A stretch of DNA of 63,996 nt, the filler included, from Sphacelaria rigidula (Eukaryota): assembly GCA_964200075.2 (NCBI GenBank). It is 4 parts of 4 records of this genome, joined end to end, with 100 filler letters (N's around TTAATTAATTAA, not from the genome) between each part and the next. Parts side by side here need not be neighbours in the genome. Positions count along the whole stretch, not along the records: positions 48,426 to 63,996 come from CAXNAA020001693.1; 3 more parts are not named here. One strand, 5' to 3'. The notes under the pieces were generated by a model. The model was given only the letters and a program-made list of their open reading frames with translations. It was not told where the DNA came from and searched no databases. The position numbers and the translations under genes were made by a program. Positions 19,819-61,900 of this stretch are shown one piece after another. Numbering within the stretch: position 1 is the stretch's first letter; each line of letters begins with the position of its first letter.

Positions 19819-20163
19819 CTGTATTGTACAAGTGATCGAATGGAGAGGACGATGTTAAGAAACGTGATTCGAGTCTCGAGATGAGCAGGCAGGAGGGAGG
19901 GAAGATACGATTCCACCTTCGAGACATGGGAAGACACAATACTCTGGACGGAACGGTTCAAGGTGATGTCACCAAACTTCCGACCCTTTGACAAGCCTCC
20001 GTGGAATGAGCACAAAAATACGAGGCACATCGTAAGTCCAACACATCCCCAAGGTCGCATGCCCACATACCCCCCAGTGCAACCCTCTGGGAAAGAGGCA
20101 AGGGAATGAGTGCTTCAACTTTGACGTCGGTCCGTGCGTTTCGACGAACCAAGCGGTGCTTAC

Positions 20164-20326
20164 CCGGGAGCGCCATTAAACCCCGGTCCACCCGGTCCGC
20201 CCGGCCCGCCCGGTCCGGCAAGGCCCTGCGACGGGTGCTGCGGCTGCTGTTGCTGCGGCTGCTGCTGACCCGGAGGAAGTTGTTGGCCATAAGGTGCCAT
20301 CGCACCATTGAAGCCCGGCTGCGGCC
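20164..20326 (-). CDS. CCCH/prion-like gene exon 7
   Basis: GPQPGFNGAMAPYGQQ...GFNGAPG|gtaagc; phases 1 and 2 fit both neighbours. An alternative acceptor would end the exon at 20338. Confidence 0.8.
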
Positions 20327-21095
20327 CTGCGTTCATGACTTCACGTGCCGGTCGATACAGGGGACGAGAAAAAATACGAACAGAACAATCGATCAAAGAT
20401 ACAGCAGGATAATTGGTGTCGTTGGTTACGGTTTCTTACAAAATATCCCAGACGTGGCGCGGCTTCCGTGTAGAACTCCGCAGGCTTCATCCAGCGCGTC
20501 AACGCCAGGGCGGTTTGAAAAGAAATCAAGAGTGCAGATTTGGGGGAAAGGTACGCTAGTCTATTTTGCACTCGTGCGATGATCACGGACTACTGGAAGG
20601 GAGAAAACGCCCAAATCGGCTACGCGGGGGCGGGGGGGGGGGAAGACCGAGAGGGGGGCTTGTATGATGAGGTCGACTCAAAAAAACAAAATGGGAGGAA
20701 TGAACGTGGAGAGCAAGCCAAGCACAGGTCTATCGGGTCACTGGAACACACGTACAGTGAGTATACGAAAAGTGTTCTCGGCACTACTGAAAGTGAGATA
20801 CTCTCGCCAACTTCGCGAGATCATATTTGTGCACGCTCAATGCCCAACCCAGAATTAGTGGGACCGGTGATCGATCGAGCGCGATGGCAGACGGCCAGCT
20901 CCATCCAAAATTCAACCAGTGAGCAGGTTCCCACCCCTGAATACGGTACATGAGCTACGCGCCTTTCTCGGAATGACAGGTGACATGGGATCATTCGTCA
21001 ATCATTACTGCATCATCACGGCACCCGTGACCGACGTCCTTCGTAGTCTTCGCTTTTAATCCAAACTCGCGAGGAAACTGGGTACCACAGCGCAC

Positions 21096-22996: not shown

Positions 22997-23993
22997 CTGG
23001 GGGCGGAGTGCAACCGGGAGCAGACGGTTGCGGGAGGAAAATCAAGACAGGGGGATTCGACGTCGCGACAATGTCGACAGAATGTTGAGACGCGACCCGC
23101 TACCTAAGCGGGAAGATTACCGTCACCCGCTTTATAACAACAGTTCCACTGGATTACACGGACTAGTGGGCAAACCATCCAGACGAGACCCAAGATTTGA
23201 AGAGAACATATTCGGCGTGAAGTGACAAGTGTGCCAGGTGGTTCCTGCAGAGAAACATCGACTCCCGACAGATTATGGATAGTCATGCGTAGGATTTCTG
23301 ATTCGGAAATTTTCCTCGCGGCCCCGCAGAGAAATAGGTATACAATTGTATCGCGCTACTTCTGCACATTATCCATCTCACATCGTGCAAATCGCGGAGT
23401 GGGTGCCCTCCACCACTACTTCCGGTACTTGAACTCATTCAGCATGGAAAAACGACCAACCGCAGGGTCAAGAACATGAACGTGGTTATCACACGGGAGT
23501 TCTTCCAAGGGGGATATTTGCTGCGGCCCACGGTAAGGCCGCATGTTGTCGACACCCAAACAACTGGGAAAACGGGAAGCGTACGAAAACATGTTAATTG
23601 GTCCCCGCGCGAGCGTAAACCTGCTGCTTTTGGACGCCTGTTCCCGTTTCCGCTTTTTCGGGGAGGATCTCACTGAGGCACAGCCTGATGATCTCACTAA
23701 TCGTACTACACAGTACTGGGACAGCGATCGTGTGTGTCAACCGCAGACATTCAGCTGCCAGTAAAAACCGCAGGCTCTCTATGTCGCGTGGCTACCTTGA
23801 CATCCTACTTCAACTTGATTGTACTTCGCAGAGACGGTGCTCGTGACAGATTGTGTTATTCGCAACCAAATTTCAACATACGCTGTTACATCCGACATAC
23901 GCCATTACATTAGAATGCTGCCTCGAAAGCGTGATCAGGTGTGACAGCTAAGAGTACCAATGGTAGTGGCACAATGCATCCAGTCCACTGTAC

Positions 23994-24189
23994 CTGACTT
24001 GTCATTGCGACCTCCGCTCGAGTTGGACCGCGACGAGGATGATCCGCCACGGTTGTTCGTCCCCGTAGACCCCGACTGGGAGGTCGCAGTGCTGGCGGAC
24101 CCCGAAGGTCGTCCGTACGCGCCGTGCTGCGCGTAGCCACCGTCGGTCGGCGTAACAGAAGTGGATGGAGCGGGGGCGGGAGTAGACGC
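23994..24189 (-). CDS. CCCH/prion-like gene exon 3
   Basis: tgcag|ASTPAPAP...RNDKS G|gtacag; phases 0 and 1 fit the neighbours. Confidence 0.8.
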
Positions 24190-24660
24190 CTGCACATGCG
24201 AAATGAGAATTAATTAGAACGCGCAAGTGTGCACAGGCGGGTGGTAACATGTTTCACAGGTCAGCACGTACACGGGCCGATGTGTGGCTAGCGGTTCCAG
24301 GGAGTAAATACTCAACAGATGGGGTTTGGTTTCATTCGCGTCCACTCCCTCTCTCCTTCGTTGTTCTTCAGGCAGATCTGATTGTCTTCTCCATCTATGT
24401 CCAATTTTCCTCCCTCTGCGCGTTTCACGAGTGTTTCAATTGTTCACGTCAGACACGTCCGTGTCTTCACCGCTGGATTTGCAGCGGATTCATGTGTAAG
24501 GGGAGGTCATCACTAAAGCACAATGTGATGAGATCGCAGAGGGGTGGCTGCGGGAGAACCCACTAGTTTTCATGGGTCAATCTCCTGGACGTCAGGGTCG
24601 CGTTCTCAAAGGATCGCAACGCGTACGGCAGCTCACTGCAATCATCAAGTTATAGCAGTC

Positions 24661-24960: not shown

Positions 24961-27035
24961 CTGCTGCCCCGCACGCTGCGACACCGACGGGGCCTGTGAC
25001 GACGGCTGCTGCGGCTGCTGTTGCGGCTGCTGCTGCCCATACACCCCATACCCCGGTGCCGCCGCATACCCACCGGGGGGAGCGCCGTATGCACCCGCAC
25101 CGGGGGCACTTCCAGCACCGTTAGGAGGAGTCGCGCCATATCCCGCAAGAGTGGTGGAGGTGGGCGCCGCACCGTACGCTGACGGTTGCTGCTGCTGCTG
25201 TTGACCTGGCTGTGCGGCTGACCCTGCGCCGTACGGCGAAGGCGTTACAGATGCTGGGGTCCCATACGGTGAAGGAGCTGCCGCCGGTGTAGATGGGGTT
25301 CCGTACGCTGAAGGGGTCCCCGCAGGTGTCGCCGAAGTCCCATATCCCGGGGTCGTCGGGGTGGTGGAAGACTGTGCCGGGGTGCCGTAGGGACTGGGAG
25401 CCGCCGCAGAGGCGCCGTAAGCCGTCTGGCCCACACCGCCCCCTGGGGTAGCAGGGTTGCCGTAGGCTCCAGCATCCTGCCCCGGTGTCTGGGCCGTCTG
25501 CGCGGTACCATGAGTAGGAGTTGAAGCCGGGGTCGTGCCAGTTGTACCACCAGCCGTCGCGCCATAAATGTCGGTGCGGCCGTACGCGGAGGCAGAGTTG
25601 TCGTACGGGGAGGCAGCGGGGGCCGGGGCGGGAGTACCGGGGGCTGTCACTCCGCTCGATCCTGAGGCCGTCGCTGCGGGGCGACTGCTGTTGCTGCTAC
25701 CCGTGGTGCCGTAGCCGCCAGCAGGAGTGGCGGTTGCGCTGCCGTAGGCGCTCTGCTGCTGGTGCGGCTGCGCGCTACCATATCCACCAGGGTTTGTTGC
25801 TCCCGCCGGCTGCAGTGAGTTGCTGCTAATCCCGCCCCCCCTTTGCTGCTGCTGAGATTGCTGCTGTTGGGAGCCGTTGCTGTTCATGCCACCGGTAGCA
25901 CCACTGCGGGCAGCGCCAGCGGAGGTCGTCGCCACCGCAGATTCTGTTGCCCCGGTGGTGCCAGTCGAACCGGTCCTGGCGTCCACCGTTCCCCCTCCCG
26001 CTCCCGCTGCCGCCGTCGCGGCCGCGGTTGAACCGGGCGCAGCCGTCGGAGCGGCGACGGGAGCGGGAACCGACCACTTATATTGACCTGTCGTCGGATC
26101 GTACACCCATCCACCAGCACTTGCAGTGGTGGTGGTGGTAGTGGCGGCGGCGGCGGCGGAAACCGCTGTCGATGCTGTCGTCTCCGCTGCCGCGGCCGAC
26201 GGTTGCTGCTGTTGTTGCTGCTGCTGTTGCTGAGGAGTCGACGTGCCATACCCCGATTGAGAGGCGGGAGCACCGTAGCCGCTCTGGGTAGCGGGTGTTA
26301 CAGTCCCACTTCCCGGCGCTGCAGCAGCGGGGGTTCCGGCTGCCGCAGACGGCACACCGTATCCCACCTGAGATCCAGCCGTGTAATATCCTTGCTGTTG
26401 AGCAGGTGTACCTGCGCCATTAGCGGCGGCAGGAGTCGCTCCGTATGCGGAGGACGTACCAGATGCGACGGCAGATCCTGTCGTGCCAGCTGCCGGTTGC
26501 TGCTGCGGCTGCCCGGTAGGGTTGACCAACGCAGCGTTGCCACCATAAGCAGGGTTGCCGTATGAATTGGCGTTGTACCCAACATGCTGTTGCTGAGGAG
26601 TAGTTGAAGAACCCGGTCCGGTCGGGGTCGCCGTAGCCCCAGTTGCCGACGGAGCACCGTAAGGGTTGGAAGGATTCACGCCGAGAAGCTGCTGCGGCTG
26701 TTGCTGCTGTTGAGGAGGTTGTCCATAAGGTTGGTGGATCTGTTGTTGCTGTTGTTGGTGAGGAAGCTGCTGGTGCCCGGGTACACCACCGGGCTGCTGG
26801 TGTTGCTGCTGGGGTTGAGACTGGTGAGGGGTGTACGGGGAGGGAGTTTGCTGTTGTGCCCCACCTCTGGAAGATTGTCCATGCTGCGGTTGCTGCTGTG
26901 AGTGCGTAGGAGGGGGGGTAGAGTGAGAAGCACCTCCACTTCCTCGCTTGGAGGGGGTGCCGGGTCCTCCGCCGTAGTTCGAGCCTGTGCTGCTCCGACC
27001 CATTGACCGGGGACCGCCGCGACCCCTCTGCGGTT
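24961..27035 (-). CDS. CCCH/prion-like gene exon 2 (2075 nt; Q, A/T and [S/A/P]YG-rich)
   Basis: Contains the 706-aa ORF; aagcag|AA acceptor is in phase with exon 1; CAG|gtaaaa donor. Confidence 0.9.
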
Positions 27036-32185: not shown

Positions 32186-32285
32186 NNNNNNNNNNNNNNN
32201 NNNNNNNNNNNNNNNNNNNNNNNNNNNNNTTAATTAATTAANNNNNNNNNNNNNNNNNNNNNNNNNNNNNNNNNNNNNNNNNNNN
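32186..32285. other. Artificial contig linker
   Basis: N44-TTAATTAATTAA-N44. Confidence 0.97.
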
Positions 32286-32424: not shown

Positions 32425-34610
32425 TTATGGGGCAGAGGAAGTATATGCTTCACCACTATATAGTCAAGAGCGGAATGCTCTATCTCGTTGTTGCATTTTC
32501 TAGTCCATGTCCATTGCGCCTCAGGCTTTTGTGCTCTATCGTTCAGCGTCTTCATCTCGTTATGCTCGAAGAACTTCAGCATTTCTACCCCGTTCGTGTC
32601 ATTCTTACCTTCCCCGTATTGCCCAATGATACCATCCGGTTGACCTCCTCTTCCTACCCTTGCATCAAAACCTCCCACTAACATTACTTATCCTTGCCTC
32701 TTATACCTATGTACATCTGCCGCTATCTCTCCAAACCTCCGTTATATATCGTTCACACTACTCTTCGTTTGTGAGGGCATGTAGGTGTTACCTACGAAGA
32801 AGTCCTTCGTTGCCCGCTCTCCTGGTACCCTTAGCCATATGCTCTCGTCGAATTTCGTGTCGTCGATCACTCTAAACTGTCACACAGGTATTACTTGACT
32901 AAGAATCCTACCCCCCCGCGCTCCCCTGCTATTGGACTTCTGTCCCTTCCGCTTCTTCCCTATCCATACGTACTCTTCGACATTGCATCCTATTTTCGCC
33001 CTGTCTGTCTCCCATGACTCTTGTATTCCTACTACATCCAGGTCGTGTTTACTCACTCGTTGCGCTATCTCTTCTCCCTTGCGCTTGTCTGTGACGAACC
33101 CATACACGTTCCACGATCCTATTCTCAGCTTCCTTTCCGAATCATTATCTGCTCTCGTGTTGTCTCCTATTCTCTCTCCGTCGCTTTTGTTTCTACTTTC
33201 CCTTGCTTGGTTGTTCTTCCCGTTTCTGCGTTGGTCTTTGTCTATTTGCTTCGGGTCGCTGTGTCCCCTCCTCTTCCCCTTCCGGGCACTTACCTGTTCC
33301 TGCCTCTCTCCCCCTCCGTTCACCCGTGAACTACATCGTAGGTTTGCTGTTCCATTAGCTATGCATACTCTCCACCCTACTCTTCTACCCTATGCCGGCA
33401 CTTTACTTGTCGCTATCCTTTCCCACCCATTGCTCGCGCCGTTTTTCAGCGTGACTCGGGAGAGTTTTCCCTCCTTTTCTACTTTTCCTGTTGCCGAACA
33501 TTATGGTCAAACTCCATCACATTTCCTTTCAAACTCTATTCTTATCACATCGCTACGAACTCCGAATACCGGCACTACTAGTACTTTACCCGTCCACTCT
33601 TTATTTCTCCATAAGCCCTTCCTTACGGTCTCTCTCTCGACCTCTTTCGCGAGAATCTCCAGCTCGTTCGTTTCAATTGTATTGGTGAGATGTAGTCAGC
33701 GTACCGGGACATCCCAATCCTAGCTCTTGTTCGGGGTCTGGTGCCTTTCGGCTCTTTTGCTGGCGCACCGACACTGAATGATGCCTCCAACACCGGCTCG
33801 TAGCCTGAAGCCAAGTTCAACACCTTTGATACAAGTACCCCACGTTTGTGTCAGGCGATCTTCATGGTAACCATCCAGGCTTCCCACGATCGTATTTTCT
33901 ATCTTCTTGCCCCGTTGCTGTACTGGTTACTTTCTTCCAGGGAGGTCATTTTCACCGTGTAAGATTCAAGGACGGCTTCCATAACACGAGGCTTTACTCA
34001 CATCGGGATGTCCCGTACATAACGTATTTCCACTCCGTGTACGGTTCACCATGGGTCACTACTACACTCATGCTTCCGAGTAGACCTTCGCTGCTGGAAG
34101 CTGGGCCAACCATTCCCCCATACGTTCTACCAGCTTCTATCCTTCAAGATCGCAAGAAGTCTACGTACCGCTTGGTTCCCCTTCTCGTAGGTCATGTGGT
34201 CGGTCATCAGTAAGGTGTTTGTTTAACGAGTGCAGTAGGTCTTGACGTTCATGTCATGCATTGTTCACCCCGTCCCTTCATTGGGCGCCTTTTGCACCTA
34301 ATGTCGAAAATTTCTGGAAATGACTGGCCAGACTTCCCCCGCTCAATGGAAAACGGTTTTACGGGTATCTCACCATCAGACCCCAACCTCCATGTGAATT
34401 TGACATGGAGGAGGGGATGGCCCTACCCTATCCGTACTGGTTGTATATTCTGTAATTTCGACATGCAAGGTGGTCAACCTTCACGCTATTACTTATATGT
34501 CTAGGGTTTGGTTCTACTCTCATATTACGTTTGTTATGATATGGGGGGCAAGAATCTCAGTCGTTCCCCGACTTCATATGGGAAAGTACATCTGTTATTT
34601 TCTCGCTATT
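32425..34610 (-). mobile_element. Decayed LINE copy B: 5' UTR plus endonuclease region
   Basis: Carries the motifs RIGSWNVYGF...DVVGIQESW and GGFDARVG; colinear with the reverse complement of ~58980-61130. Confidence 0.88.
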
Positions 34611-36053
34611 CCGCGTTCATGTTCGGGCTGTGGTATGGTAGGTTAAATAAAAGGAGGGTTAGCTTCTCTACTCCATGTCTATGCCCGGCCTGTATTATGG
34701 TAGGTTATGTAAAAAGGAGGGTTAGCCTCCTTATTTCATGTCTATATCCGGGGGCCATGATCTAGTAGGTTGAAGAAAAAGGAGGGTTAACGTTCTTATT
34801 TCATATCTATGTCCGGGCTGCCTTTTGGTAGCTGATATAAAATGGGGGGCTAGCTTCTTCATTTCATGTCTTTGTCCGGGTTGTATTATGGTAGGATGAA
34901 GAAAAGGGAGGGCCAGCTTCTTTATTTCATGTCTGTGTCCGGGCTGTTTTTGATAGGTGAAAAAAATGAAGGTTAGCTTCCTCATTTCATGTCTATGTCC
35001 GGGCTGTGTTATGGTATGCTAAATATAAAGGAGGGTTAGCTTCCTTACTTCCATGTCTATGTCCGCGCTGTGTTATGGTAGGATAACGAAAAAAGAGGAT
35101 CGGCTTCTTTATTCCATGTCTGTGTCCGGGCTGTGTTATCGTAGGCGAGAGAAAAAGGAGGGTTAGCTTCCTCATTTCATGTCTATGTCCGGGCTGTGTT
35201 ATGGTATGCTAAATATAAAGAAGGGTTAGCTTCCTTACTTCCATGTCTATGTCCGCGCTGTGTTATGGTAGGATAAAGAAAAAAGAGGGTCGGCTTCTTT
35301 ATTCCATGTCTGTGTCCGGGCTGTGTTATCGTAGGCGAGAGAAAAAGGAGGGTTAGCTTCCTCATTTCATGTCTATGTCCGGGCTGTGTTATGGTATGCT
35401 AAATATAAAGGAGGGTTAGCTTCCTCATTTCATATCTATGTCCGGGCTGTTTTATGCTAGATGAAAGAAAAGGATGGTTAGCTCCAATATACCATGTCTA
35501 TGTCCGGGCTGTGTTACGGTAGGTGAAATAAAAGGGGGGGTTGGCCTCTCTATTTCCATAGCTGTGTATGGGCTGGCTTATGGTATGTTGAATAAAAAGC
35601 GGGGTTAGCCTCTTTATTTTCATATCTATGTCCGGGCTGTGTTATGGTAGGTGAAATAAAAAGGAGGATCAGCTTCTTCATTCCATCTCTATGTTCGGGC
35701 TGTGTTATGGTAGGTGAAATAAAAAAGGGGTTAGCTTTTTCATTTCATGTCTTATGTCTGGGCTGTGTTATGGTATGTTAAATAAAAAGGGGGTTAGCCT
35801 CTTCATTTTCATATTTGTGTCCGGGCTGTGTTATGGTAGGTGAAAGAAAAAGGGGGGTTAGGCTTTTCACTTCCATATCTGTATCCGGGCTGTGTTATGG
35901 TGGGTGAAAAAAAAAGGGAGGTAAGCCTCTTCATTTTCATATCTGTGTCCGGGCTGTGTTATCGGATGTGAAAGAAAAGGATGGTTAGCTCGTCTACGCC
36001 GTGTCTATGTCCGGGCTGTGTTATGGTATGTGAGATAAAAAGGGGTGTTAGCC
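34607..36053. repeat. Tandem array of ~63-bp monomers (~23 copies) with a local 190-bp trimer higher-order repeat
   Basis: Unit ttcatgtctatgtccgggctgtgttatggtaggtgaaataaaaaggagggttagcttc; anchors at 34997, 35061, 35124, 35187, 35251, 35314 and 35377. Confidence 0.95.
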
Positions 36054-42278: not shown

Positions 42279-43600
42279 GTGCTGTGGATTATTTGATTAT
42301 TTCACGATCGCACCGCCTGATATGTACAGTATGGAAATGTATTACACCCTAGACAAGAGCTTTCTACAGTCAGTATACAATTTAAAAACATGTACTGTGC
42401 ACAGTATAAAAGCTATTGCCTTCTGCGACGTGCACAATACTCGTACAAAAAAGGGAACTGCGCGCAGTATGACTTCAAGACAGTGTAGAAATCGCCTGGC
42501 GGTATGAATTGGTACGGCCGGCTTGTGCGCTATAGCGGCTGTATTGCCATCCGCTCAAGATACAGGCAGAAATTATTACGGCAGAGGCGGCCTATTACTC
42601 TTGCGTGCACCACCTAGGGCAAATGCACACTTAGCTGCAACACCGACCGCTGTACTAGATGTGGTGAAGCGAGGGGTGGTACACCGCGTACACACAGACA
42701 TCAAGCAATATCATACATGTATACTGTGCACAAGTGTGATTCGAAATCCGTGCGTGCGGGGTCGGGCCGACATTTAGAGATCTCTGCACAAGTTCGCCGT
42801 GTACTACCGGGACACGACCTTACTTCAGTAGCGATCACTTGCGATGTGTGCTGCGACGGGTCTCGTGCGTGATAGTGTTTTTTCTATCGTTTTTCCACCT
42901 CCGCACACCTCTTGTGAAGCGTGCTCTTCATGGTGGAAGTGTTCACCGCTCTTTCCGCCACTCTTGGTCTGAGACATTCGAAACTGCGAAATGTGACAGT
43001 ACGAGTATCTACTGGAAGGTACATATTCTCCCACACAATCGCCTCCATAATATGAAAGAGGAATAACACTGGTATATTTTCGACTTGCGTCACCCCCGGG
43101 AGGCCAGTATCAACCCCCCGAAGGGGGACCTTGTAATGTATATATGATACTTATATTAGAAATATATATGTAAAGGAGCAGAAGCAAATATACACCCTGC
43201 GAAGCCCGCCCAAATTTTCGGATTTTGTCAATGTTCATTGATCAATTTCTTGAAACAAAGTTAACAGAAAATATATGAAAAAATCAGGATAATTTTAATT
43301 GTCGAAAAAATGCCCTCCTGCGTCTGACGTCATCGGGACAGAACGGGCAAGGAGCAGAAGCAGATATACGTACCTCACGAACCCCGCCAGACTTTTCGGT
43401 TTTTGTCAGCGTTTATTGATCAACTTCTTGTGAAAAAATTAACAGAAAAATCAGAAGAATGTTTATTGATCAATTCCTTGCGACAAACTTGACAAAAACA
43501 AATCGAAAAAACCATGACGAGTTTCGAAAAATTGCTCTCCGAGAGGGGAGGGCGGGGGGGGTGGGACTACGTGTCCGAAAGTTTCCTCAGCGCTGCCCTG

Positions 43601-43715
43601 GTTAGCCTCTTCATTTTCATATATTCGTGTCCGGGCTGTGTTATGGTGGGTGAAAGAAAAAGGGGAGTTCGCCTCTTCATTTTAATATCTGTGTCGGGGC
43701 TGTGTTATGGCAGGT
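43601..43715. repeat. Continuation of the 63-bp monomer array (~2 units)
   Basis: gtgtccgggctgtgttatggtgggtgaaagaaaaagggg units. Confidence 0.9.
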
Positions 43716-43733
43716 TTCCAGGAAAGGTTATAT

Positions 43734-44100
43734 TGTGGAGGATATCTCTTTGCAGTGACATATTAGAGACTGATGCCACACATGTATGCAGACCCAGCGC
43801 AAGCAGGGACAAGGTAGGAACGTTCCGGAAGGACCAGATCACCGAGGATCCTGTAATGCCGACGTAACTAGACAACTCGGGGGGATGCTAGGAAGAGCCT
43901 AATGTAGGACGGTGCAACATCTCGTGAGGAACTGGTCGCCCACGGCGAGCGCTCTCCTAGTCTGATCCCACTTCTTGCCTACATATACAAGAGGAAATCA
44001 TCGCCAGCCTCGGAGTTCCTTCGGCATCAGGACGGCAGTCTCCCCCCCGTAGGCCTCTGACTACTCTAGCGATACGCCTTCCTCACACTGGCGACACCAG
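43734..44100 (+). mobile_element. Putative 5' LTR (43734-44087) and primer-binding site (44089-44100)
   Basis: TGTGGAGG...CCTCACA inverted termini, then c-TGGCGACACCAG, which is complementary to a tRNA 3' end with CCA. It lies directly upstream of pol relics. Confidence 0.7.
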
Positions 44101-46620
44101 AACAGAACTCAAACAAGACAGGCCTTGGAAGTAAAAGTTGGAGCGAGAACCGACTGCTCCCCGACACCGGAAATACTGGGGTCCCCCAAGGAACGCTACT
44201 CCAGGTGAAACGTCTGGGTCATGTGCTCAATTATTCGAGTTGAGAAACTATTGGAGTCATGTGTTTGGATCAACACGAAATTTATTTGTCACCCGTATGA
44301 ATAATCAAAGAACGAAACGCGAGTTTAGACTCCCAAGGGTGCAGTATATGTCACCAGTACGACTAGTCAAACAGCGAAAACACAAAAATAATCTATTTAG
44401 TAGGCATTATATGTCACCAGAACGGCTGATACAACAGCGAATCCACAATCAACCAACCTTTCACCACCATCACGCGAAAGTCACGGCAATTAATCAAGCA
44501 GGCCGACCTCTGGAAACGCAGTGACTCAAAATAGCATCAACAACTAAGTTACCCAACCTGCGAATGCACGACCTTGTCATTCCCTACCAGGTTGCGAACG
44601 AAAGAAAAGAGGTGTATCGGATGGTCTTTTACCGCATCCCAGATCACAAGCTGAGAGAGGTTGAAAAGTACAGACATGTTCAAGTCCCCACACCTCATCT
44701 CGCATGAAATGTACGAAGTCTCAACCGTCTGGTGAAGAAACCATATAGGAGGAATGCGGGTTTCTCGGTCAGTACAACAACTCACTCCTTCAGAAGGGCA
44801 CCAAAACAGCCTTCAGTCGTGGTGTGAAAATACGTACGAAGAGCAAAAGCTGGAAAGAGCACGATGAGAGTTGGTCCCCAAGCAGCCTTCAGAGCAGCTG
44901 TGGGAAAAACAATACACCACACGAAGGACCATCATCAAACATGTAGCTCAATTTGTTGAAGCTCTCAAGTATGTTACATTCTGCGCCGTACCCCGAGGGA
45001 TCGGTAACGTTACATCCCGTTGCAAGCAGGGGCTGTTGATTCCACATCAAAACACCAGTCTTCCTTTTTTTTCAACCCGATCTTGGACGATCACTTTTAT
45101 GACTCATACAACACATCACCGCTCGCCAGGTATACAAATGCGCCCCTAGCGCTATCCTGGGCATCAGCCGCGTTAGAGTCGCAGCCAGAGTAAACGGTAC
45201 CCTCGCTGAAAACAATCACAATCGATTCCGCAGCAGGATGTACAGGGTATCAGCAGAAGTTCATCGATGCACATTTTGCCATCATGGCAGCTGATATTAA
45301 GCCAGTACCGCCAGAACTCACCGATCTCAGAAACGCGGAATAAAAAATCCGAGGGTTCCGGCATAGAATGGCAGCATTAGTTGAAACAGAAAACACCCCG
45401 TGAACAACAACAACAACGACTGTCGTGCGGCAACGCATAATAACCGAAGAGGACACTCGATCGTCGGATGTACCTCAGGCATTCACGGGCATCAGCCTTT
45501 CAAGGACAGCAGGCACGTAGTAGGTGACGAACAAAAAAAAGAAATCGTACAAATTACCAACCTATCGAGCCCACATGTAAACCCCGGAAAAACTCCATGA
45601 TAATGATAAGAGACAAAAAGCCGGAGAAACTTCATGTTATTCCGGACACCCTCACGACTGCTTGCGCTACTACAACTATGTGGCAACGTGCCAAAGGACC
45701 ATGTGCTGCAAATAGCTGAGCCGCAGATCACCGTCAAATATCAACTAAGAAGCTAGACTGTTTGAAGCCAGTGCAAAGAGACCGAGACCTGTCAGTCAAC
45801 CGGCCAGAATGTGCCGATGGGACACGTTCCGGTAGGACGGCTAGACGAAAGAGTGCCGGCAAACCTAGTCGAACGCACAACGAATCCGATGTAAAACGCT
45901 GGAGTACTAGGTGAATATGTACTGTCCGTAGTGGACTACCTCACCAAAAACTCTTTTTGACAGAGTCTTCACTACATTTGGCATCCCGGGAAAGCTGCGT
46001 TTTAATTCAAGAGCCAAGCAGCAACACCCGAAGAATTTTCCAACGAAACACGGGAAAACCTACAGTTTGGATTTGAAATTGCGAGACAAGCCCTACGAGA
46101 AGAGCGAACGAGCAAGAAAACAAGAACAAATTCAAATGTTTCCCGGTGTTCAAACCCGACCAAAAGGTACTCTTGTACCCACCATAACAGGACTCAGGAA
46201 GGCCGAGCCCGAACCTCCAATCTACATGGAGAGGACCTTTCATGGTAACCGAGAGACGATCGCCGGTTGTGCACATAATCGAAATAGGCGACGACTCTAA
46301 AGAAATGTCAGTACATCGCGCTAACTTGAAGAAATATCACCCGTGGGAAACACCACCGGCATCAGATGTCGATAAATCGAGCGAGTTGTTCCTAGACAAA
46401 CAGATACCTCCACCAGAGAGACCAACCACACAAAACATTGCCTACAATGAAACGTTGCGCTGCCGAAAAAGTGCTAGGTCACGCGCCAGGCCCAGGTCGA
46501 AGAAGTCGTTACAACGATGAATATCTGTTGAGACACCAGGGCTACGGCCCAGCGGCTGACCTGATCTACCGAAGAATTGCTCAGCACCGAACTTTGACAA
46601 AGGGTTAGCTGAATGCTCAC
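44101..46620 (+). mobile_element. Heavily decayed Ty3/Gypsy (chromovirus-like) internal region
   Basis: Integrase motif EYVLSVVDYLTK (~45913-45948); GPY/F motif WRGPFMVTERRSPVV...VHRANLKKY (~46227-46340); chromodomain-like EYLLRHQGYGPAAD (~46519-46560). Confidence 0.8.
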
Positions 46621-47969
46621 ATCCAGACTTGGAATCCAAAACTACAGGGAAACGGAAACGGATGTGACTGTTTAGCAGAATGTTTAAGCGTCCTAGCAAA
46701 ACGCTCAAAGGTTGAGCAGTAACCTGAGATCAAAATTCGGAGATTAATGAGACTAAAAAGCTACAGCCCAACAATTGACCTAACCTATCGAGCTGACGAA
46801 ACAACACAAGGTAGACACATCCTCGATATATACCGTCATGACAACGAGTTAGCAAAGCGCTCACATCCTGAGTCGTAACCCCAAAATACCGGGTAACGGA
46901 AACGGATGTGACCGTTCAACAGACTGTTCAAGCGTCCTAGCAACACGCTCAAGGGTCGAGCAGTAGCCCGGAGTCAAAATTCGGAGATCAAGGAGAGTCA
47001 CAAGAGAAGAAAACAAAAAAACAACGTTAGAACAATGCAGACATGAACGGAAACATATCTGACATGTCAACGGTGACCGGAGTGCAACTTCCCAAGGAAG
47101 ATAGCTTCTCAGCAATAGGGGTAGTGCCGATCATTTCAATGATGTTTAGACAAAAAAGCACAATGCTCACACGCCGAAACATCGTATTCATCGCTTTGTT
47201 GCTAACACGATAACGCTGTACTATTTCGGTGTCAGCGGAACCGAAGATATCCCAGAACCCGGATATGAAAAACCCAGGCGCCCGTGCACCGATCAGTGTC
47301 CCAGTGCCCAGGCATGTAGAAACAGCAGATGCATCCAGCACCAGAATGCAACGCATCTAGTGGATTATCTAATGGGACACACGTATATCCCACAAATTGA
47401 TACGAAGCAAAGAACATGTCGATGTTTCACCAAAGAGCACAATGCTCGGAAGATACACATCAAACCCACCGCTTTGGTACTAACGCGAGGACTTTGTCCT
47501 ATACTCCGGTGTCGGTGGAACCGAAGGTATCCCAGAACCCGGGCAGAAATATCCCAAGCGCCCGTGGACCGGGTCCGCCTCCCAGTGCCCAGTCAGGTAT
47601 ACCTAACTGATGCAGCCTGCACCAAAGTGCAAAAAGCATCCCATACGAGCTGGGCCGGTCATCAGTGATTTTCAAACGAAGAGTGGAGATGCGTTTGGCA
47701 AATCGAAGAGTTCGGCGCTGAAATTTTGACACGACATTTTCATCATCAATCCGCGCAACACTCCGAGTGGTGCAGAAGAAGAAGAAAAAACAAAAAGTTA
47801 GAGCGAGTTAAAGTTTCAGCAAAACCAGGAAAAGTGCTATAACTTCCTCAAAAAATGTTCAAAACCATAACAACGCTCGGGTACATACGAGCACTCGCAT
47901 CACCCATATCCTTATAAAGTTTCAGCCAAAAATACGCAAAATTGGGGTTCGCGTCGCACGTTTTGTGTG

Positions 47970-48052
47970 ACCCCGGTGGTCAAACTGATACAACAGCCCC
48001 AAAACACACAGGTCATGAGTTCGAATCCCGGCATGACCACTTTTTTTTTTTT
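47970..48052 (+). other. tRNA-derived (SINE-head-like) sequence with A/B boxes and a T-run
   Basis: ccccggtggtcaaactg...ggtcatgagttcgaatcccggc...T-run. A related B-box lies on the minus strand at ~9557-9580 and a related A-box start at 32131. Confidence 0.45.
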
Positions 48053-48325
48053 CAAGGGGCATGACCACATGCATGATGCCATGCCCGTGTCATCAGTTGC
48101 GGTACCCGCGCCCTACGATACAGCCGTGCACGCGCTGTAGGAGCTGCATGGCGCTTTTACTTCGACCAGTTCTCATGTCAAGCACGACCAACAACCTCTT
48201 ATCGCAGAATGTGGCCATGTCTTTTGGAGGAGCATGAAACGGGGCGGAGACAGGTAACAACAAATTGTGCGAATTGAGGTTTAACTTCGAGATGAGGCTC
48301 AAGCCTAAAACAGTGCTTTCCCCAC

Positions 48326-48425
48326 NNNNNNNNNNNNNNNNNNNNNNNNNNNNNNNNNNNNNNNNNNNNTTAATTAATTAANNNNNNNNNNNNNNNNNNN
48401 NNNNNNNNNNNNNNNNNNNNNNNNN
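48326..48425. other. Artificial contig linker
   Basis: N44-TTAATTAATTAA-N44. Confidence 0.97.
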
Positions 48426-53872: not shown

Positions 53873-56269
53873 TTCACCGATTCATCCTAATGGTGACCAG
53901 CAAATTAGTGTCAATAAAGTTCAACATCTTACGCGTATCTATACCTTCAGTAGGGAACTGCGGCATGGCCTATCTGTGCTGGTGTCAATTGACCTCAAAA
54001 CAAGGGCTCTCCGACGCCAACACGATCCATGCATAGTGAGGGTCATAGCGTGTCTACTCCAAGAGAGTAGCCGGTATTTTATCCAGGAGGCCAACAGGAC
54101 ATCGTGGTTCAAGCTCAACACGTCTTGGGATCTTGTTTCCTGGTCACTTCTTCGTTTGGTCCGGGGATGGTTGCGGCAGTGACGGTTGAGGATATCTGGT
54201 AGTCGGAAGTTTTCAAAAAGACACTTTTTCACAGCATCGACGGGATCGGCATGTTTTAGGGACCGAAGGGTGTCCATGACAGGCGGTTCAACGCCATTTC
54301 ATCCAGGTGGTCGATCGCACGATGCAATTGAAGCTTAGAAGTCATGCAGAGGCACACTTTGAAACGCGGTGTAAAGTGTAACGGGCCTTTGACCAGAATT
54401 GAGTACCATTTTCGACCACTCGACCGATCGTACCATATTACACACTGCGTGACAACCCGAGCCGTAGGAAAGTCTTGCCCCATGCTTGTCATGTGCGATC
54501 TCGTGAAAGGGCACGGAATTAGGGCACTGCCCAGTGAGGAATCCGCCCTGAAGTTGCTGCAAAAAAAGTGCTCGGCGCGAGACTGATCACGTCGGGAGCG
54601 AGTTAATGGGAATGTTTCTCCTCTCATAGTGTCGGCCAATCGAACACTGTTTCTCTGAACGTGTTTCATGTTGTACCGACTCGTGCATGTAAATATAATC
54701 AACCGCCAGGAAACTTGGCGGTATCTTGTTGGCGATAGTTGCTCCTGTCCGTGTCCACTCTTTCGGTTCCAGTGTACGTCCAGCACGACTGCATTGTACC
54801 TACCTGCACTGGCATCGGGCATGGATTTTACCTCAGACCGGCCAGACCGGTCAGATGCGTGTACCGTTCGCGTGCTGTAGTTTACCCATGAGTTTGCGGT
54901 GGATACCCTCCGAGCGGCGACAGCTTTCCCCCTAACTCGCCGGACATAGACTTCCATTGCTCCACAGCGTTCTCAGTCCGTGGAGTTGTGTTACATCGAA
55001 AAGACGTGTTACAATCGTGTTCACAGTCACGGATGGTCGTCTAGAGATGTAGATGGGCCTGAAGCTGTGGAGCCAGGGTATAGAGTCACGTGCGAGTACT
55101 CGTCGTAATATACCGTGAAGATTTGAAACTAAAATGTACACATCAAAAGCAGAAACCACTCAGGCGCAACAGCGACCGGCTAGACAAGTTCGGGCATTGC
55201 GTAAAGGTACCCGCAGACTCACACGTCTCATGCCCCTCTCGCCGTCCCAAATTGGCATTCCCCTTCTCAGGCATGTGTCTATTCGCCAGATACACAAGAG
55301 TCGAGGAATTTGTATTCACACTGTAATCTCCACTTGGCAGATTTCTACTTGCCAGAGACGTGCAAGGAAGACTCGGGGCTTGAGTTCCAACAATTGACTC
55401 ATATAGGTACCGTTGCACTGTGTCGGCAGTTGATCGCACGACATCGTAGACCCCGCGGGAAGCACGATTTACTACTCAAGATGTTCGAAAGGGAGACAAA
55501 TTTGGACAAGCACTCTAGGGTCCGCTTGCAGACGCCGTGCGGTCAACACAAGCCCAACACGATATCCTCCCGACTGCTGTATTTGACCGTCTTAAATCAC
55601 ATGTATTGCACGCGCAACTAGGCGCAAAATGCCCGGGGAAGCGTTGCTCCCAGACCATGTCGAAGTTTCTTGCACTCATGACAGCAGCCTGCATCATAAA
55701 TTCGCCCAGTGCCCTCACTGTGGGGTTTGACAGAGTGCTTTTTGCCAGCAGCCCCCACAGAAAAAATGTATCCTGAGCTTGTTCCTCACTAAACTTTGTG
55801 TGCTGACATCAGGCACTGCCGCCCGCGGAAGGTCAGCCATGGAGGGACAAAAGGTGCTACCCCAACTGCGCCAGGGTCGCGCTAGTAGCCTCTCGGAGAA
55901 AGAGCACGCTGCCGAAAGTGGACATGTCGCCGAAGACTAGAACTTTCATAAATCAGTACGATGCCATCTGCTGCAAATGTGGCCGGTATATCGAGGTAGG
56001 GGAAGCGATGGATGCAGAAATTTGCCCGCTGCTGCAGCCGAAGTGGCAGAACAAGAGGCACAGCAACGGGAAATGCCCGCCTCGGATACACTTTTTCCCG
56101 GACCACTCTTCGGAGGTGGAGGGGGACATGCCATTGTGGGTTTTCTCGTGTATAGCAGAATGTGGACTGCCGCCTGCCTGTTGCCGCACTTGGAAGTGTA
56201 TGGTTAAGCTTACATGTTTGTTATCAGTGGCATTCTGTACAGCAGCAGTAGAGCTTTGAAACGCATCAT

Positions 56270-56647
56270 TGTGGAAGGGTGATTCCTTGACAGACACTCG
56301 TGGGAATTTGTCCCTTTTATGTGGGGGTTGCAACATGACCCAACGGCTCATGAGCCGCTTGAAGGTTTTGTAGGTATAACCTTTTACGCAGGCTAGTGTT
56401 TGGAATCTTTGATTTTAATCCATACGTCTTCCACGTGTATTGCTTTATCCGTGAATTTCGAAGTCTGGTTCAGAGGGTACTCATAATTTGTTTTGGCTCC
56501 CGCCATTTTGGTGGGATCCGGGAGTTGAACCCGGGACCTTCTGTTCGTGAAGCGTACGAGCTATCTCACTGGTGTCGCCAGTGTGAAAAGGTGATTCCTT
56601 GACAGACACTTGTGGGAATTTGTCCCTCCCATGTGGTGGTTCCCACA
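56270..56647 (-). mobile_element. Mini-LTR (TRIM-like) element with ~66-bp LTRs
   Basis: Direct repeats 56270-56335 and 56582-56647 have TG...CA ends. On the minus strand TGGCGACACCAG lies 1 nt from the right repeat. Confidence 0.7.
56509..56569 (-). other. tRNA-like sequence (intact T-arm, CCA end, no proper D-arm)
   Basis: Minus strand reads ...cttcacgaacagaaggtc CCGGG TTCAACT CCCGG atcccaCCA. Confidence 0.6.
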
Positions 56648-58920
56648 TTATATTATGATCTCGCCAGCCTAACGCAGGCTTTCTGTCCCTTCTCCGCCCT
56701 GTTTCACGCTCCCGCGTACATCTGTATTTTGTCGTGCCTCCCGCCCTTTCTCCCTCACGAATGTGTGCTACAGCCACGCGCGCGCAACGTTCGGTGCAAC
56801 TTCTCGTAAGTGCGCGAAACGTTATTGCGGCAGATGTCACCACGTGTTTGAGTTCGGGAGTTACGTCGAGTCATCCAACGGAGAAGCAATCTGCACGGAC
56901 TGCGCGGAGGCAGGTGAGTCGCGACTAGCTGGAATCAAGTCCGCTGCTCAACATGCGCCTATGGGTTTGCGTTTGGCACCGTGATGCTATGATGGTAAGG
57001 GTACTTCAACGTGACTCATGCTTTTGAGTTTGGAACACGCACCGCACGGTTTGGTGTATTTGTTACACTCTGTAGAAGGGGAATCGGAGGAGGAGGAGGA
57101 GGAGGAGGAAGATGAAGATGACGATGACGACGACGAAGACGACGACGACGAGGATGAGGATGAGGATGGTGATCACGAGGTGAAGAAGGAGGAGGACGAG
57201 GAAGAGGAGGAACATGGAGAGGAGGAAGGTGAGGTAGCAGATGATCCAAGGCATTGCCCAACCTACCACATGCAGCTAGCTAGGCCGAAACGACGAGACC
57301 ATGAACACCACACCTGGGAAGGTGTGGTGATGCTGCTGTCGTTTACATTCCGACGCGTGTTCCGTCCCGTACTGTCTCATGTCACCCTTGATACCCCAAA
57401 ATGTGGCCCCTTTTTCCGGTTGCAGAATCTGAGTTTACCTTCATCAAGTCGACCATGCGTTTGAGGAAAACCGTGTGTTATGCGGTGAGGGGTGTGTCCT
57501 AACCGGCATTTCTCGCTGACTATGTTCACATATCTAGACCACGGACAGACTCATAGCACCTAGCGTCGAGTGTAGGCCTTGGGTAAACTCACACAGCCCC
57601 AACTGTTGAGTTCGCAGTAAAGCAAAGACATGTATACAAGTGTCATAAATTAGTCGCTCATTGCCCCTGGAGAAAGTACTTTTTCACACCGATGCTCAAG
57701 GCAATGATAGAGCGCACAAACATAAAATCGATCGCGAGTGGTGAAGCTCGCACGATTCGCTATCTCCTAAACTTCTACAAGTAGCCATCCCTCAATGAGA
57801 CCCACTGACTCATGCGTCATGCTACCATTCAATGTACCTGTATGTCTAGAGAAATATCCTAAATATTGGAGACTGTACATGGAGACCCATTACCAGTTTG
57901 GGAATCACTCAACGAACACCCCTGATTTGAGCCCTGGTGAGAATATTGATAAATTCGTAAATACCAAACTGCAAGCATTCACCGTGGAGTAAACGTTAAC
58001 GCGAGAGCCCTAACGGGGGAAGCAATAGTAATGGTAAATGGGGGCCATAACGACAAAAAAAGCGTGGGCAAAAAATAAAAACGCGGAGGAATAATAAGGA
58101 ATAATAAGGAATAATGAAGACGTCATCGACTCGCCGGACCTGTGCCAAACTTCTGTAGGCTATGTGCCGAACAGAACACACGTTCCATCTCAAGTTTCCG
58201 AGGTTTAGTATGTGACAGCTGTAATATTTTTCATCGCGTCGTTCTCGAGACAGGAATCAAACCGGCCTGTGGCACTTCACAACCCCCCGCACACACACTA
58301 GACCTAGTCACTCGCGCGGCGGATCTGCTCAATTCGCCACAGCACATTGTGTGTTAGGTGCGGCGGTTTGCAGAGTGCTGCGGCGTCTGCGGCACGCGGT
58401 TACGGAAACCCGCCCCGCGAGTGACTAAGGTCTGGTGTGCGGGAAGCGCACGCATCAAGCCGCAGTCAAATCCTCTGCTTGGTTGCCGAGAAAACTGCGT
58501 TGAGAGATCGGCACAACAACATACTGCAACACGAGGGGCACAAGAAATGCACGAGCTGCGGTTTCTATCCTCTTTTTATGACTCGGTATACATTTGCACA
58601 GCAACGTCAATCACAGGTTTGTTGTAGAATGATCTATAATAATAGTACATTTCATATGAGCGAAGTCGTTATTTGTAGGTGACGCGTGTATTTATTATTC
58701 ATATGATTGGCTCGATTACAACCCATTTTCTGCAGAGCGGGGTGGGTCTCCATTTTCCGATATATAGTGCTCAAAATCGGCCCCCATTTATCCCCATAAC
58801 AGTGATCGACTATATACAATGTTAAATCGAATGCAACCACAAAGAAAGGATGTAATTACCGAAATCATTTTCATTGGCTTGAAATTCACGACCAATTTCG
58901 GAAGGTTAGTTCCAATCCCC

Positions 58921-61900
58921 CAGCTAACCCTCCTTTTTCTTCCACCAACCAGAACACAACACGGATATAGACGTGAAATAGCGAGAAAAAACAGATCTAA
59001 TTTCTCATATCAAGACGGGAAATAACCGAAGTTCTTGCCACACCATAGCAAAGGTAAGACAAGAAAAAAGCCAAAACCTAGACATTAAGTAATAGTGTGA
59101 AGGTTGACCACCTTACATGCAAATCGAGCATACAAAATACATAACAAGTACGGATAGGGTAGGGTCATCACCCCCTTCACATGGAGGTTAGGGTGTCGTT
59201 GTGAGATACCCGTGAAACCTTACCGGTTTCCAGTAGGCGGTGGAAATCTGGTCAGCCAAAAATTTCCCATATTAGGTGCAAAAGGCTCCTAATGAAGGGA
59301 AGGGGTGCATAATGCATGACATAAACGTCAAGACCTACTACACTGTACTCATGAAAGAAACACCTTGCCAATGACCGACCACATGACCTACGAGAACGAG
59401 CACCAAGGGGTACGTAGATCTCTTGAGATCTTGAAGGATAAAAGCTGGTACAAAGTGTGGGAGAATTGTTGGCCAAGCATTCGGCAGCGAAGGTCTACCC
59501 GGAAGCATTAGTGGAGTAGCGACCCGCGGTGAACCGTACACGGAGTGGAAGAGTGATGTACGAGACATCCCGATGTGAGTAAGACTTTGTGCTATGCAAG
59601 CCGTCCTTGAACCATATACGATGAAAATGATCTCCCTGGAAGAATGTCCCCAGGACGGCAGCGGGGCAAGAAGATAGAATATACGATCGTGGGACGCCTG
59701 GATGGTTCACCATGAAGATCGCCTGGCACAAACGCGGGGTACTTGTGTCAAAGGTGTTGAACTTGGCTTCAGGCTACGAGCCCATGTTGGAGTCATTATT
59801 CAGTGTCGGTGAGCCAGCAGAAAAAGTGAAAGGCACCAGACCCCCAACAAGTGCTATGATTGATATGTCCCAGTACGTTGACTATATCCCACCAATACAC
59901 TCGAAATGAACAAGCTGGAGATTCTCTCGAAAGGGATCGAGAGAGAGGCGGTAAGGAAAGGCGGATGGAGAAGTAGAGAGTGAAGGGGCACAGCATTCGT
60001 AGTGCTGGGATTCGGAATCCGTCGCGACATGACGAGAATAGAGTTTAAAAGAAAATGCAACGGAGGTGGACTATACTACATGGCAAGGTGAAAGGTAAAA
60101 AGGGAGGGAGGACACTCCCGAGTCACACTAAAACAGAGCGCGAGCAAGGAGTGGGACAGGATAGAGACAAGTAAGGTCTCGGCATGGCTTAGAAGGGCAG
60201 GATGGAGAGTATGCATAGCTAATGGAACAACAAACCTAGGACGTAGTCCACGGGTAAACGGAGAGAAAGGCAGGAAGATGTGAGTGTCCGGAAGGGGAAG
60301 GGGAGGGGACACAGCGGCCCGAAGCAAATAGACAAAGACCAAACCAGAAACGGGAAAAACAATCAAGCAACGGAAAGTAGAAGTAACAGCGACGGAGAGA
60401 GAGCAGCAGACAACAGGAGAGCAGATAATGATTCGGAGAGGAAGTTAAGAATGGGATCGTGGAACGTATGTGGATTCGCCACAGACAAGGGCAAAAGAGT
60501 AGAGATAGCGCAGCAAGTGAGAAACCGCAACCTAGATATACTGGGAATCCAAAAGTCGTGGGAGAAAGAGGGGGCGGAAATAGGATGCAAAGTTGAAGAG
60601 TACGCATGAAAAGGGGAAAAGCGGAAGGGACAGAACCCCAAGTGAAGGGGAGCGAGGGAAATAGGGTTCTTAGTCAAGGAACACCTGTGTGGCAATGTAG
60701 AAGCGATCAACGGCACGAAATTCAACGAGAGCACATGGAAAAGGGTACCAGGAGAGCGGGGAACGAAAGACGTCTTCGTAGGGAACATCCACATGCTTCC
60801 AGCATCGAAGCGTACGGTGAATGATAAACAGCGAAAGTTTGGAGAGATAGCAGGAGATGCACATGAGCATAAAGGGCAACAAGAAGTAATGTTTGTCGAG
60901 GGTTTTGATGCAAGGGTAGGAAAAGCAGGTCAACTGGATGATAGTATTGGGCAATACGGGGAAGATAAGAACACGAATGGGATAGAAGTGCGGAAGTTCC
61001 TTGACCATAACGAGATGAGGACGCTGAACGGTAGAGCACAAAAGCCAGAGGCGCAATGGACGTGGATGAGAAGACGCAAAGACGAGAGAGAACGCTCCGT
61101 TCTTGACTATACAGTGGTGGAGAATGGAAACAGTGAAGAAATGGAAGTACATGTATGCGCGGAGGACGTGGGAACCACAGATCATCGCTTGATGTGGACA
61201 GAAAGCCAACAGACGAAAGTTGAAAGGAATAGGCGGGGTAGGGAGTTGCACAAATGGATGACCGATAAACTATATATGGGGAAAAAGCGGCAATAGTTCC
61301 AAGAAGAGGTGGCCAAGAATGCCGTGATTTTTTCCGAGCTGTTGAAACGCGTAGGTACAGTTGACACCGAAATGGAAAGAAATCGGGCAGGAGCGAAGGT
61401 TGTGGAAGGATGGGAGCGGTTGGTCAAGAACACAGAGAGTCAAGGCAAGGAAGAAACTGATCGTGTGCAACAGAGCAGTAAAATAGTGGTGTGATGAGGA
61501 AGTGAAAGAGGCTATGAGAGTAAGGAGGTCCACGCGAGATGCGTGTAAAGTAGAACTACGGCAGGATGGGAGGAGTATACTAAAGCTCGAACGGAAGTTA
61601 ACTAGATAGTACAAGAGAAAAAAAAGGAGTGTGGGAAGATGTAGTATATAACGTAAATGGGGATTTCGAGGGCGGGATGAAACAAATGTGGGTAGGGATA
61701 AAAGGGATAACGGGATACCAGGCAGGAAAGATGGACACGGGGATAGCCACACTCCGGGCACAGAACGGTAAAATGGTCAGTAGTTCGAAGGGAAAGAGAG
61801 GAGTGCTAGTCAAGCACTACGGTAAACTAGGAACCTTAAAAACTAACACGGAGTTCGACATGGAATTCGAAAAATAAATCAACACGTGGGCAGAGGCAAA

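Follow-up and report, generated by a model that had tools for sequence, protein, structure and literature searches.

How an LTR element as small as 378 bp can be transcribed and primed is the question raised by positions 56270-56647 of the DNA analysed here, a stretch of 63,996 nucleotides, filler included, which is called the window below. The element belongs to a real and very abundant family of non-coding TRIMs. The locus as a whole is best, and quite probably correctly, explained as an old and fixed copy of this high-copy TRIM with a tRNA-derived module.

The window consists of four pieces of about 16 kb, separated by spacers of the form N44 + ttaattaattaa + N44 at 16045-16144, 32186-32285, and 48326-48425. 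The mini-LTR element is found on the fourth piece and the junction proposed to belong to a "Gypsy" element on the third, and their order in the window does not imply that they are neighbours in the genome. Domains of eukaryotic type (SPA, CCCH zinc finger, LINE-type endonuclease) are encoded by ORFs of the window, and several repeats are dispersed in it, which indicates that it originates from a repeat-rich eukaryote. A dispersed repeat found in three copies that are 79-82% alike (32445-34664, 58922-61125 on the opposite strand, and 12593-14205) is probably a LINE-type retrotransposon, since an Exo_endo_phos endonuclease domain lies within it at 32883-33389 on the minus strand.

A direct repeat pair is found at 56267-56336 and 56579-56648 (70 nt, 86% identical; E 6e-16 in a BLAST comparison of the window with itself), and this is the sole repeat family within 55900-57000. 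Trimming to the units common to other copies of the family leaves 66 nt on each side, with 57 of the 66 positions identical, so that the two TG...CA direct repeats of about 66 bp described in the first-pass annotation are indeed present. The ends of the repeats are TGTG...CACA whichever strand is read. On the minus strand the right-hand repeat terminates in ...CTTTTCACA, followed by a C and then by TGGCGACACCAG. Besides the repeat pair and one 18-nt match, no other copies of the element were detected by BLAST within the window. A Pfam search gave no family for the stop-to-stop frames over the element (55956-56414, minus strand), nor for the plus-strand frame 55807-56256, which ends just before it. 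With the minus strand as sense, the element is composed of the following parts:

56648..56651, no strand: right candidate TSD TTAT, read from the sequence
56582..56647, minus strand: 5' LTR in element sense, 66 nt, TGTGGG...TTCACA, delimited by the repeat pair and the ends of family contigs
56581, minus strand: spacer base between LTR and PBS, C in the window copy and T in most of the family depth
56570..56580, minus strand: PBS TGGCGACACCA, 11 nt, or 12 nt when G 56569 is counted
56510..56569, minus strand: tRNA-derived module, with a 28/29 nt identity to tRNA-Thr(AGU) and high family depth
56518..56534, minus strand: T arm and box B GGTTCAACTCC, matched by the tmRNA and mascRNA T arms
56498..56516, minus strand: hairpin TCCCACCA-AAA-TGGCGGGA, within the minimum-free-energy fold
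56336..56497, minus strand: rest of the internal domain, little of it shared with the family, about 4x flank depth at 56370-56469
56336-56349, minus strand: eroded PPT at the 3' end of the internal domain, reading ...GTTGGGTCA in the window copy
56270..56335, minus strand: 3' LTR in element sense, 66 nt, TGTTGC...TTCCACA
56266..56269, no strand: left candidate TSD TCAT, matching the right TTAT at three of four positions

The family was studied by aligning contigs of four public runs (X1, X4, X5, and X6) to 55770-57269 at 80% likeness; the runs in which this DNA occurs are labelled with one organism and with "algae metagenome". The summed depth of the flanks was 27.6 in X1 and 24.5 in X4, while it reached 18,817-20,927 (X1) and 23,339-24,372 (X4) at 56520-56619. 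The repeat, the PBS, and the tRNA-like part display a summed depth 680-760 times that of the flanks. The left repeat reached up to 1,309 and the interior at 56370-56469 about 115, both in X1. The depth of the tRNA-like part is about equal to that of the LTR, although two LTRs per interior would predict a ratio of about 1:2, which collapsed contigs cannot settle. As its depth equals that of the LTR, the module belongs to the family and is not a private SINE insertion of the window copy. The module has been kept as well as the LTR, while the remaining interior has not.

Summed contig depth is not a copy number, and the junctions are therefore better evidence for a mobile family. The loose ends of the family contigs are found before 56581/56582 and behind 56647/56648. 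Unrelated AT-rich sequence precedes 56581/56582 in 37+65 contigs of X1, 32+64 of X4, and 12+17 of X5, and unrelated sequence follows 56647 in 65, 66, and 20 contigs of the same runs. In the deep runs X1 and X4 each repeat edge has 64-72 contig ends, with a fifth, register-shifted row of 32-37, and the flanks at the repeat edges agree among contigs at only 0.35-0.40. At each edge at least 65 contigs per deep run have unrelated flanks, which shows that the copies are dispersed in different genomic contexts. Behind 56648 the LTR continues into CACCCCCCCC... on the plus strand in 72 (X1), 68 (X4), 30 (X5), and 6 (X6) contigs. This C-run, which reads CACCCCCCCCTTCCC..., corresponds on the minus strand to a G-run polypurine tract immediately upstream of the repeat. 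Four junction types, flank-LTR, LTR-PPT side, PBS side-LTR, and LTR-flank, occur in similar numbers, and these are the junctions of an LTR-PBS...PPT-LTR element, that is, of a TRIM with the minus strand as sense. Among the 15 joints listed out of 56, 12 connect an LTR position at 56626-56649 with one at 56456-56570, which falls within the tRNA-like part or immediately ahead of it. Depth and junctions in the public runs together show a high-copy family and not a single-copy element, and the earlier assignment to the TRIMs holds: terminal repeats, family junctions, and family PPT all fit, and the stop-to-stop frames over the 378 bp gave no Pfam family.

The window copy itself is old and worn. 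Its LTRs have diverged by 14%, its PPT is eroded while the family has a good one, and the candidate TSD reads TCAT on one side and TTAT on the other; the weak TSD and PPT already remarked on in the first-pass annotation are both seen. All four runs contain the left flank-LTR junction, and X1, X4, and X5 contain the right one as well, with three flank positions at which X4 departs from the window. Individuals or strains thus have the insertion in common, and it is not new. No contig skipping the element, as expected from an empty site, is found among the 15 of 56 joints listed. An old, fixed, and inert copy is the best explanation. Of the two LTRs in the window, 56582-56647 is nearer to the family bulk. 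The C that separates LTR and PBS is the less common letter among the family contigs, as 56581 displays G>A in 8118.7/13761.3 of the depth in X1 (59%) and 9679.5/15491.9 in X4 (62%). A suspected internal duplication within the interior of the window copy was dropped, its local alignment score of 13 being below the shuffle mean of 16.3. The contigs of X6, a run guessed to be RNA, cover 55809-56135 and 56774-56913, and not 56670-56769. The two covered blocks encode Cys-rich repeats of the CxxC type on the plus strand, and the element may accordingly sit antisense within an intron of a host gene.

The module is tRNA-derived, but it is not a tRNA. It contains a 5' acceptor-like GTGAGAT, a TAGCT corresponding to half of box A, the 3' strand of an anticodon stem (ACAGA), the variable loop AGGTC, the T arm, the 3' acceptor strand ATCCCAC, and a C as base 73. 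The T arm CCGGG-TTCAACT-CCCGG, found at 56534->56518 on the minus strand, is perfect and is followed by ATCCCACCA, and GTGAGAT is able to pair with ATCCCAC at six of seven positions. The minus-strand sequence 56546->56518 is identical to a tRNA-Thr(AGU) at 28 of 29 nt, covering base 37/38, the 3' anticodon-stem strand, the variable loop, and the T arm. Even the sole mismatch, at 56524, has the letter of the tRNA in 92% of the family depth (G>T, 10621/11542.8 in X1), most of which thus displays the classic loop TTCAAAT.

The tRNA gene used in this comparison (locus L001, 683-786, minus strand, on a contig of 26% G+C) was found in a metagenome collection using a 20-mer of the module, as a single locus on an unrelated AT-rich contig. 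It scores 54.8 bits against Rfam (E 1.4e-11) and contains, according to ARAGORN, a 28-nt intron, which is unusual in a tRNA-Thr(AGU). It was considered as a copy of the element and ruled out, as it is an unrelated, genuine tRNA gene. Exact matches to an 18-mer of the module were likewise discarded as relatives. Three are found in genome contigs and one in viral contigs, namely in two archaeal MAGs, a Bacillus relative, and a viral contig, and no tRNA is present there; about 17 such matches are expected in the 596 billion bases searched, and those observed are thus due to chance.

None of the detection methods recognises the module as a tRNA. ARAGORN reported no tRNA in it in normal, relaxed, mitochondrial, or intron mode, and the one call obtained at the lowest threshold was a nonsense model of 90 nt. 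The Rfam tRNA model gave no match up to E 10 on 121 nt, and of the module Rfam recognised the T arm alone (tmRNA 11.5 bits, E 0.0034; mascRNA 13.8 bits). Hits to the Tymovirus tRNA-like element (14.1 bits), sR32, mir-3957, and HIV-1 SD were far under their thresholds and were treated as chance. In the minimum-free-energy fold (z = -2.55) the T arm is formed, while the acceptor stem and the cloverleaf are not. The body is about 24 nt too short, portions of the D and anticodon arms being absent.

The first-pass annotation had described a tRNA-like 3' half ending in CCA and had taken it for a captured mature tRNA. The T arm stands, and the letters CCA can be read at 56511->56509, but counted from the T arm they occupy tRNA positions 72-74 and not 74-76, since the module ends with the acceptor strand ATCCCAC, base 73 C, and then A. 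The CCA is thus shifted by two bases from its proper register, which leaves the capture of a mature tRNA unsupported, and the missing 24 nt or so and the blank ARAGORN and Rfam tRNA searches also speak against it. A tRNA gene or the head of a SINE is a simpler source.

The two internal promoter boxes of tRNA genes are differently preserved in the module. Published motifs are TRGCY...YGG for box A and GGTTC for box B (Kojima, 2024, PMC10886601, section 3.5). Box B reads GGTTCAACTCC in the window copy and GGTTCAAATCC in most of the family, and its commonest variant, at 56526 in 16% of the X1 depth, retains a purine at T-loop position 57. As for box A, the TAGCT is present without the following YGG. 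The 3' end of the module is further able to pair with a PBS-like complement located 3 nt downstream. In the window copy seven of eight pairs are formed, while the majority letter at 56502 (G>A, 3879.4/4408.8 in X1; 88% of the family depth in X1 and 87% in X4) gives TGGTGGGA, an exact 8-nt complement with eight of eight pairs. This complement resembles an additional PBS-like site, one that would fit the module's own parent tRNA. A bolder and unlikely idea is that the hairpin made up of the ...CCA end and the complement represents a remnant, or even a functional component, of a priming device that mimics a tRNA.

The PBS proper starts with TGG, one base past the CA of the LTR, and TGGCGACACCA is complementary to ...(C)UGGUGUCGCCA, the putative 3' end of the primer tRNA. 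A primer ending in ...CUGGUGUCG(CCA), with G at position 73 and such a stem, may be a tRNA-Ser, one of the two types (Ser or Leu) expected in the first-pass annotation. No tRNA genes were found in the window by ARAGORN or Rfam, and at gathering thresholds Rfam gave 0 matches for the whole window. In intron mode ARAGORN suggested a tRNA-Ser(GCU) with a 146-nt intron at 26763-26997; this was rejected as a false positive in a GC-rich, coding-like stretch, and its end does not match the PBS of the element. A literature search with the letters of the PBS returned PCR primers only. The PBS is also part of a 6-bp hairpin, CACUGG-CGACA-CCAGUG (56564-56583, minus strand), which takes in the very end of the LTR as well as the beginning of the tRNA-derived module.

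The 12-mer TGGCGACACCAG is found exactly twice in the window, at 56569-56580 on the minus strand and at 44089-44100 on the plus strand. With up to one mismatch allowed 0.30 matches are expected by chance, and two were reached in 1 of 100 shuffles. The identity of this second site to the minus-strand junction of the element, noticed in the first-pass annotation, comprises 18 nt including TCACA-C and was also retrieved by BLAST. Two features are of relevance for this locus:

44083..44100, plus strand: putative LTR end and PBS, TCACA-C-TGGCGACACCAG, found by 12-mer search and BLAST
46188..46517, plus strand: decayed remnant of an integrase C-terminal SH3-like domain, 2.1 kb downstream of the PBS at 44089

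The remnant is below the Pfam cut-off (Integrase_p58_C, E 0.0099, 16.4 bits against a cut-off of 27; SH3_Tf2-1, E 0.093), and its atlas neighbours, which serve as leads only, carry the same families. The interval 44101-48325, where the internal end and the 3' LTR of the proposed Gypsy element would be located, was translated on the plus strand in three frames, both as stop-free frames and through the stops (X at stops), and contained no reverse transcriptase, RNase H, integrase core, or chromodomain. The G-run PPT motif of the family has 17 loose matches in the window and none in 44101-48325, and no LTR pair that would provide the locus with a second LTR was found. The 44.1-kb locus is probably a decayed fragment of an LTR retroelement with the same primer tRNA. 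The shared PBS weakly favours a common helper lineage, and a chromovirus identity is without support; mobilisation of the element by chromoviruses or by the 44.1-kb partner is thus unproven.

The third piece also contains, at 34603-36053, a tandem array whose period is estimated from self-match offsets at about 63 nt; two related units are found at 43600-43716, just upstream of the putative LTR end at 44087. At 48008-48053 a hairpin GGTCATG...CATGACC surrounds a box-B-like AGTTCGAATCC, and 12 consecutive T come after it. This segment resembles the 3' portion of a Pol III unit, but gave no Rfam match up to E 1.

In element sense, a 66-nt 5' LTR is followed by one base, a PBS of 11-12 nt, the 60-nt tRNA-derived module, and the short hairpin, and then by a variable spacer, a G-rich PPT, and the 66-nt 3' LTR. 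Reverse transcription would be primed by a host tRNA ending in ...CUGGUGUCGCCA, and an autonomous LTR retrotransposon with the same primer would provide reverse transcriptase and integrase in trans. As to its origin, the module probably descends from a tRNA gene or from the head of a tRNA-derived SINE, its 3' half being of the tRNA-Thr(AGU) type.

As to the role of the module, the best guess, which is a tentative one held with less than even confidence, gives it the cis-acting function of an internal promoter element for RNA polymerase III. Such a promoter would make up for an LTR too short to contain an ordinary one. The intact box B, the TAGCT of box A, the T4 run near the LTR end, and the LTR length of 66 nt point in this direction. 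Against it, the module is located downstream of the PBS, so that a transcript initiated only a few bases ahead of the module would not include R and U5; box A is without its second half, the T4 run is present in the 5' LTR too (LTR nt 59-62), and none of the runs recorded as RNA contains the stretch. Alternatively, the module may be a structured RNA signal for packaging or priming instead of a promoter.

The rival explanation that survives best, though it is doubtful, is that the module has no role in transcription or replication. It would then be a passive relic, derived from an old SINE or a piece of a tRNA gene that had inserted into the internal region of an ancestral TRIM, and carried along only through recent amplification of an abundant subfamily. 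That no detector calls the module a tRNA, that the fold is without a cloverleaf, that box A is incomplete, and that a Pol III start at this position would miss the LTR are all in keeping with such a relic, and insertion of a SINE has been proposed as the origin of such parts (Kojima, 2024, PMC10886601, section 4.2). However, the window copy is old, with LTRs that are 86% alike, and it still aligns to the family bulk at 56491-56648 and not in the other interior. Retention of LTR, PBS, and tRNA-like part together with loss of the other interior is the pattern predicted by cis-acting constraint. Box B also fits the consensus, and even its commonest variant leaves the purine of the T loop in place.

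A particular form of the promoter role has been considered in view of the LTR length. As 66 nt is too short for a promoter, the element may use a split downstream Pol III promoter. Box B, conserved close behind the PBS and accompanied by half of box A, would set the transcription start to the end of the 5' LTR or just within it, and the transcript would stop at the T4 run of the 3' LTR. This arrangement is unlikely. If true, it would represent the TRIMp3 design (the group that comprises Helenus, Cassandra, and Ajax; PMC10886601) with the promoter placed internally and not in the LTR.

It is improbable that the module goes back to a template switch in which reverse transcriptase moved onto a mature, CCA-ended tRNA packaged alongside the element RNA and inserted a copy of it, in sense orientation, between PBS and interior. 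In favour of this, the module does have the sense orientation, begins right behind the PBS, and ends in ...CCA, and the complement that follows this end offers a site at which such a tRNA could have annealed. A mature tRNA would, however, read ATCCCAC-N-CCA, while ATCCCAC, base 73 C, and A are observed; the D and anticodon arms lack about 24 nt, and the PBS implies a different primer tRNA.

Also quite improbable is that the element is of the Helenus type with a true LTR of about 145 nt, made up of the 66-nt unit, the apparent PBS, and the tRNA-like part, and that the second LTR in the window is truncated. The real PBS would then be the TGGTGGGA-like sequence right after the long LTR, primed by the parent tRNA of the module. 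This would account for the similar depths of the tRNA-like part and the 66-nt unit, and for the 8-nt complement, perfect in 88% of the depth at 56502 (X1), which stands 3 nt downstream of the module and includes its CCA. The best-supported left edge is nevertheless 56581/56582, with unrelated AT-rich sequence before it in 102 contigs (X1) and 96 contigs (X4), and no comparable edge is found near 56509 among the loose-end rows listed. The other repeat in the window is followed by unrelated flank and not by a tRNA-like part, and an identical 12-nt PBS is found at another LTR-like end.

That the 158-nt unit 56491-56648 is instead a tRNA-related SINE or a satellite-like repeat, with the second repeat as a chance neighbour, is very improbable: the strongest depth is limited to this unit and joints that go back about 158 nt are among those listed, but such joints are also expected of one LTR-interior-LTR copy when both LTRs are aligned to the same repeat, the four junction classes occur in similar numbers and include the conserved G-run before the repeat, and a SINE would have its tRNA head at the 5' end and an A-rich or LINE-like tail, while here 78 conserved nt (LTR, spacer, and PBS) come before the module and the tail is absent.

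The preferred reading thus remains that of an old copy of an abundant TRIM with an internal tRNA-derived module. The family is among the most repeated sequences of its host, and it would inflate the number of tRNA-like and box-B (TFIIIC-site-like) sequences genome-wide, which is of relevance for the annotation of tRNA genes and repeats in algal assemblies. TRIMs that have borrowed parts of small-RNA genes, such as Cassandra, Helenus, and Ajax, are the counterparts of SINEs among the LTR elements. The borrowed part has so far been described inside the LTR, while here it is found in the interior, fused to the PBS of an element whose LTRs measure just 66 nt. Literature searches returned no TRIM described as having a tRNA-derived part fused to the PBS, although the supplementary tables of Kojima (2024) might contain one, and the accessible text of an Ectocarpus transposon paper and of a sugar beet paper describes no such element.

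Compared with tRNA-derived SINEs (SINE2), the element has in common a tRNA-derived segment with a box B, a short length, and a high number of repeats. SINEs, however, have the tRNA head first and a LINE-like or A-rich tail, and are without terminal direct repeats, PBS, and PPT. With SMART and the canonical TRIMs it shares two short LTRs, a PBS, a PPT, and the lack of coding capacity, the canonical elements being mobilised in trans. SMART, at 292 bp, is the shortest TRIM group (Witte, 2001; Gao, 2012; as cited in PMC10886601); the present copy is longer, at 378 bp, though its LTRs are very short. Canonical TRIMs are without a part derived from a small RNA, while the present element has one.

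In Cassandra, a TRIM of plants, the LTR contains a Pol III promoter and terminator that derive from 5S rRNA (PMC10886601, section 1). The present element likewise is a TRIM with a part from a small-RNA gene, and the T-run in its LTR could serve as a Pol III terminator. The borrowed part is, however, a 5S sequence in Cassandra and a tRNA sequence here, Rfam giving no 5S match in the element or the window, and Cassandra transcripts are described as starting and ending in the LTRs (with an R of 18 bp).

The closest resemblance in the type of the borrowed part is to Helenus. Helenus elements are TRIMs of 311-1263 bp with tRNA-derived sequence in their LTRs; they are described from fungi, animals, and Selaginella, and the accessible text of Kojima (2024, PMC10886601) does not report them from algae. 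Some Helenus families are reported there to have tRNA-Thr-like parts. Both are short, non-coding LTR elements of high copy number with a PBS and a PPT, in which the tRNA-derived part is not a functional tRNA and the GGTTC of box B is conserved. Unlike the tRNA-like part of Helenus, which according to the same text is present in both LTRs, the module of the present element is internal and adjoins the PBS, and the LTRs are only 66 nt. As the module is absent both from the second LTR and from the left edges of other copies, the element is without the defining feature of Helenus. The family is a TRIM, and it may also work like the TRIMp3 elements.
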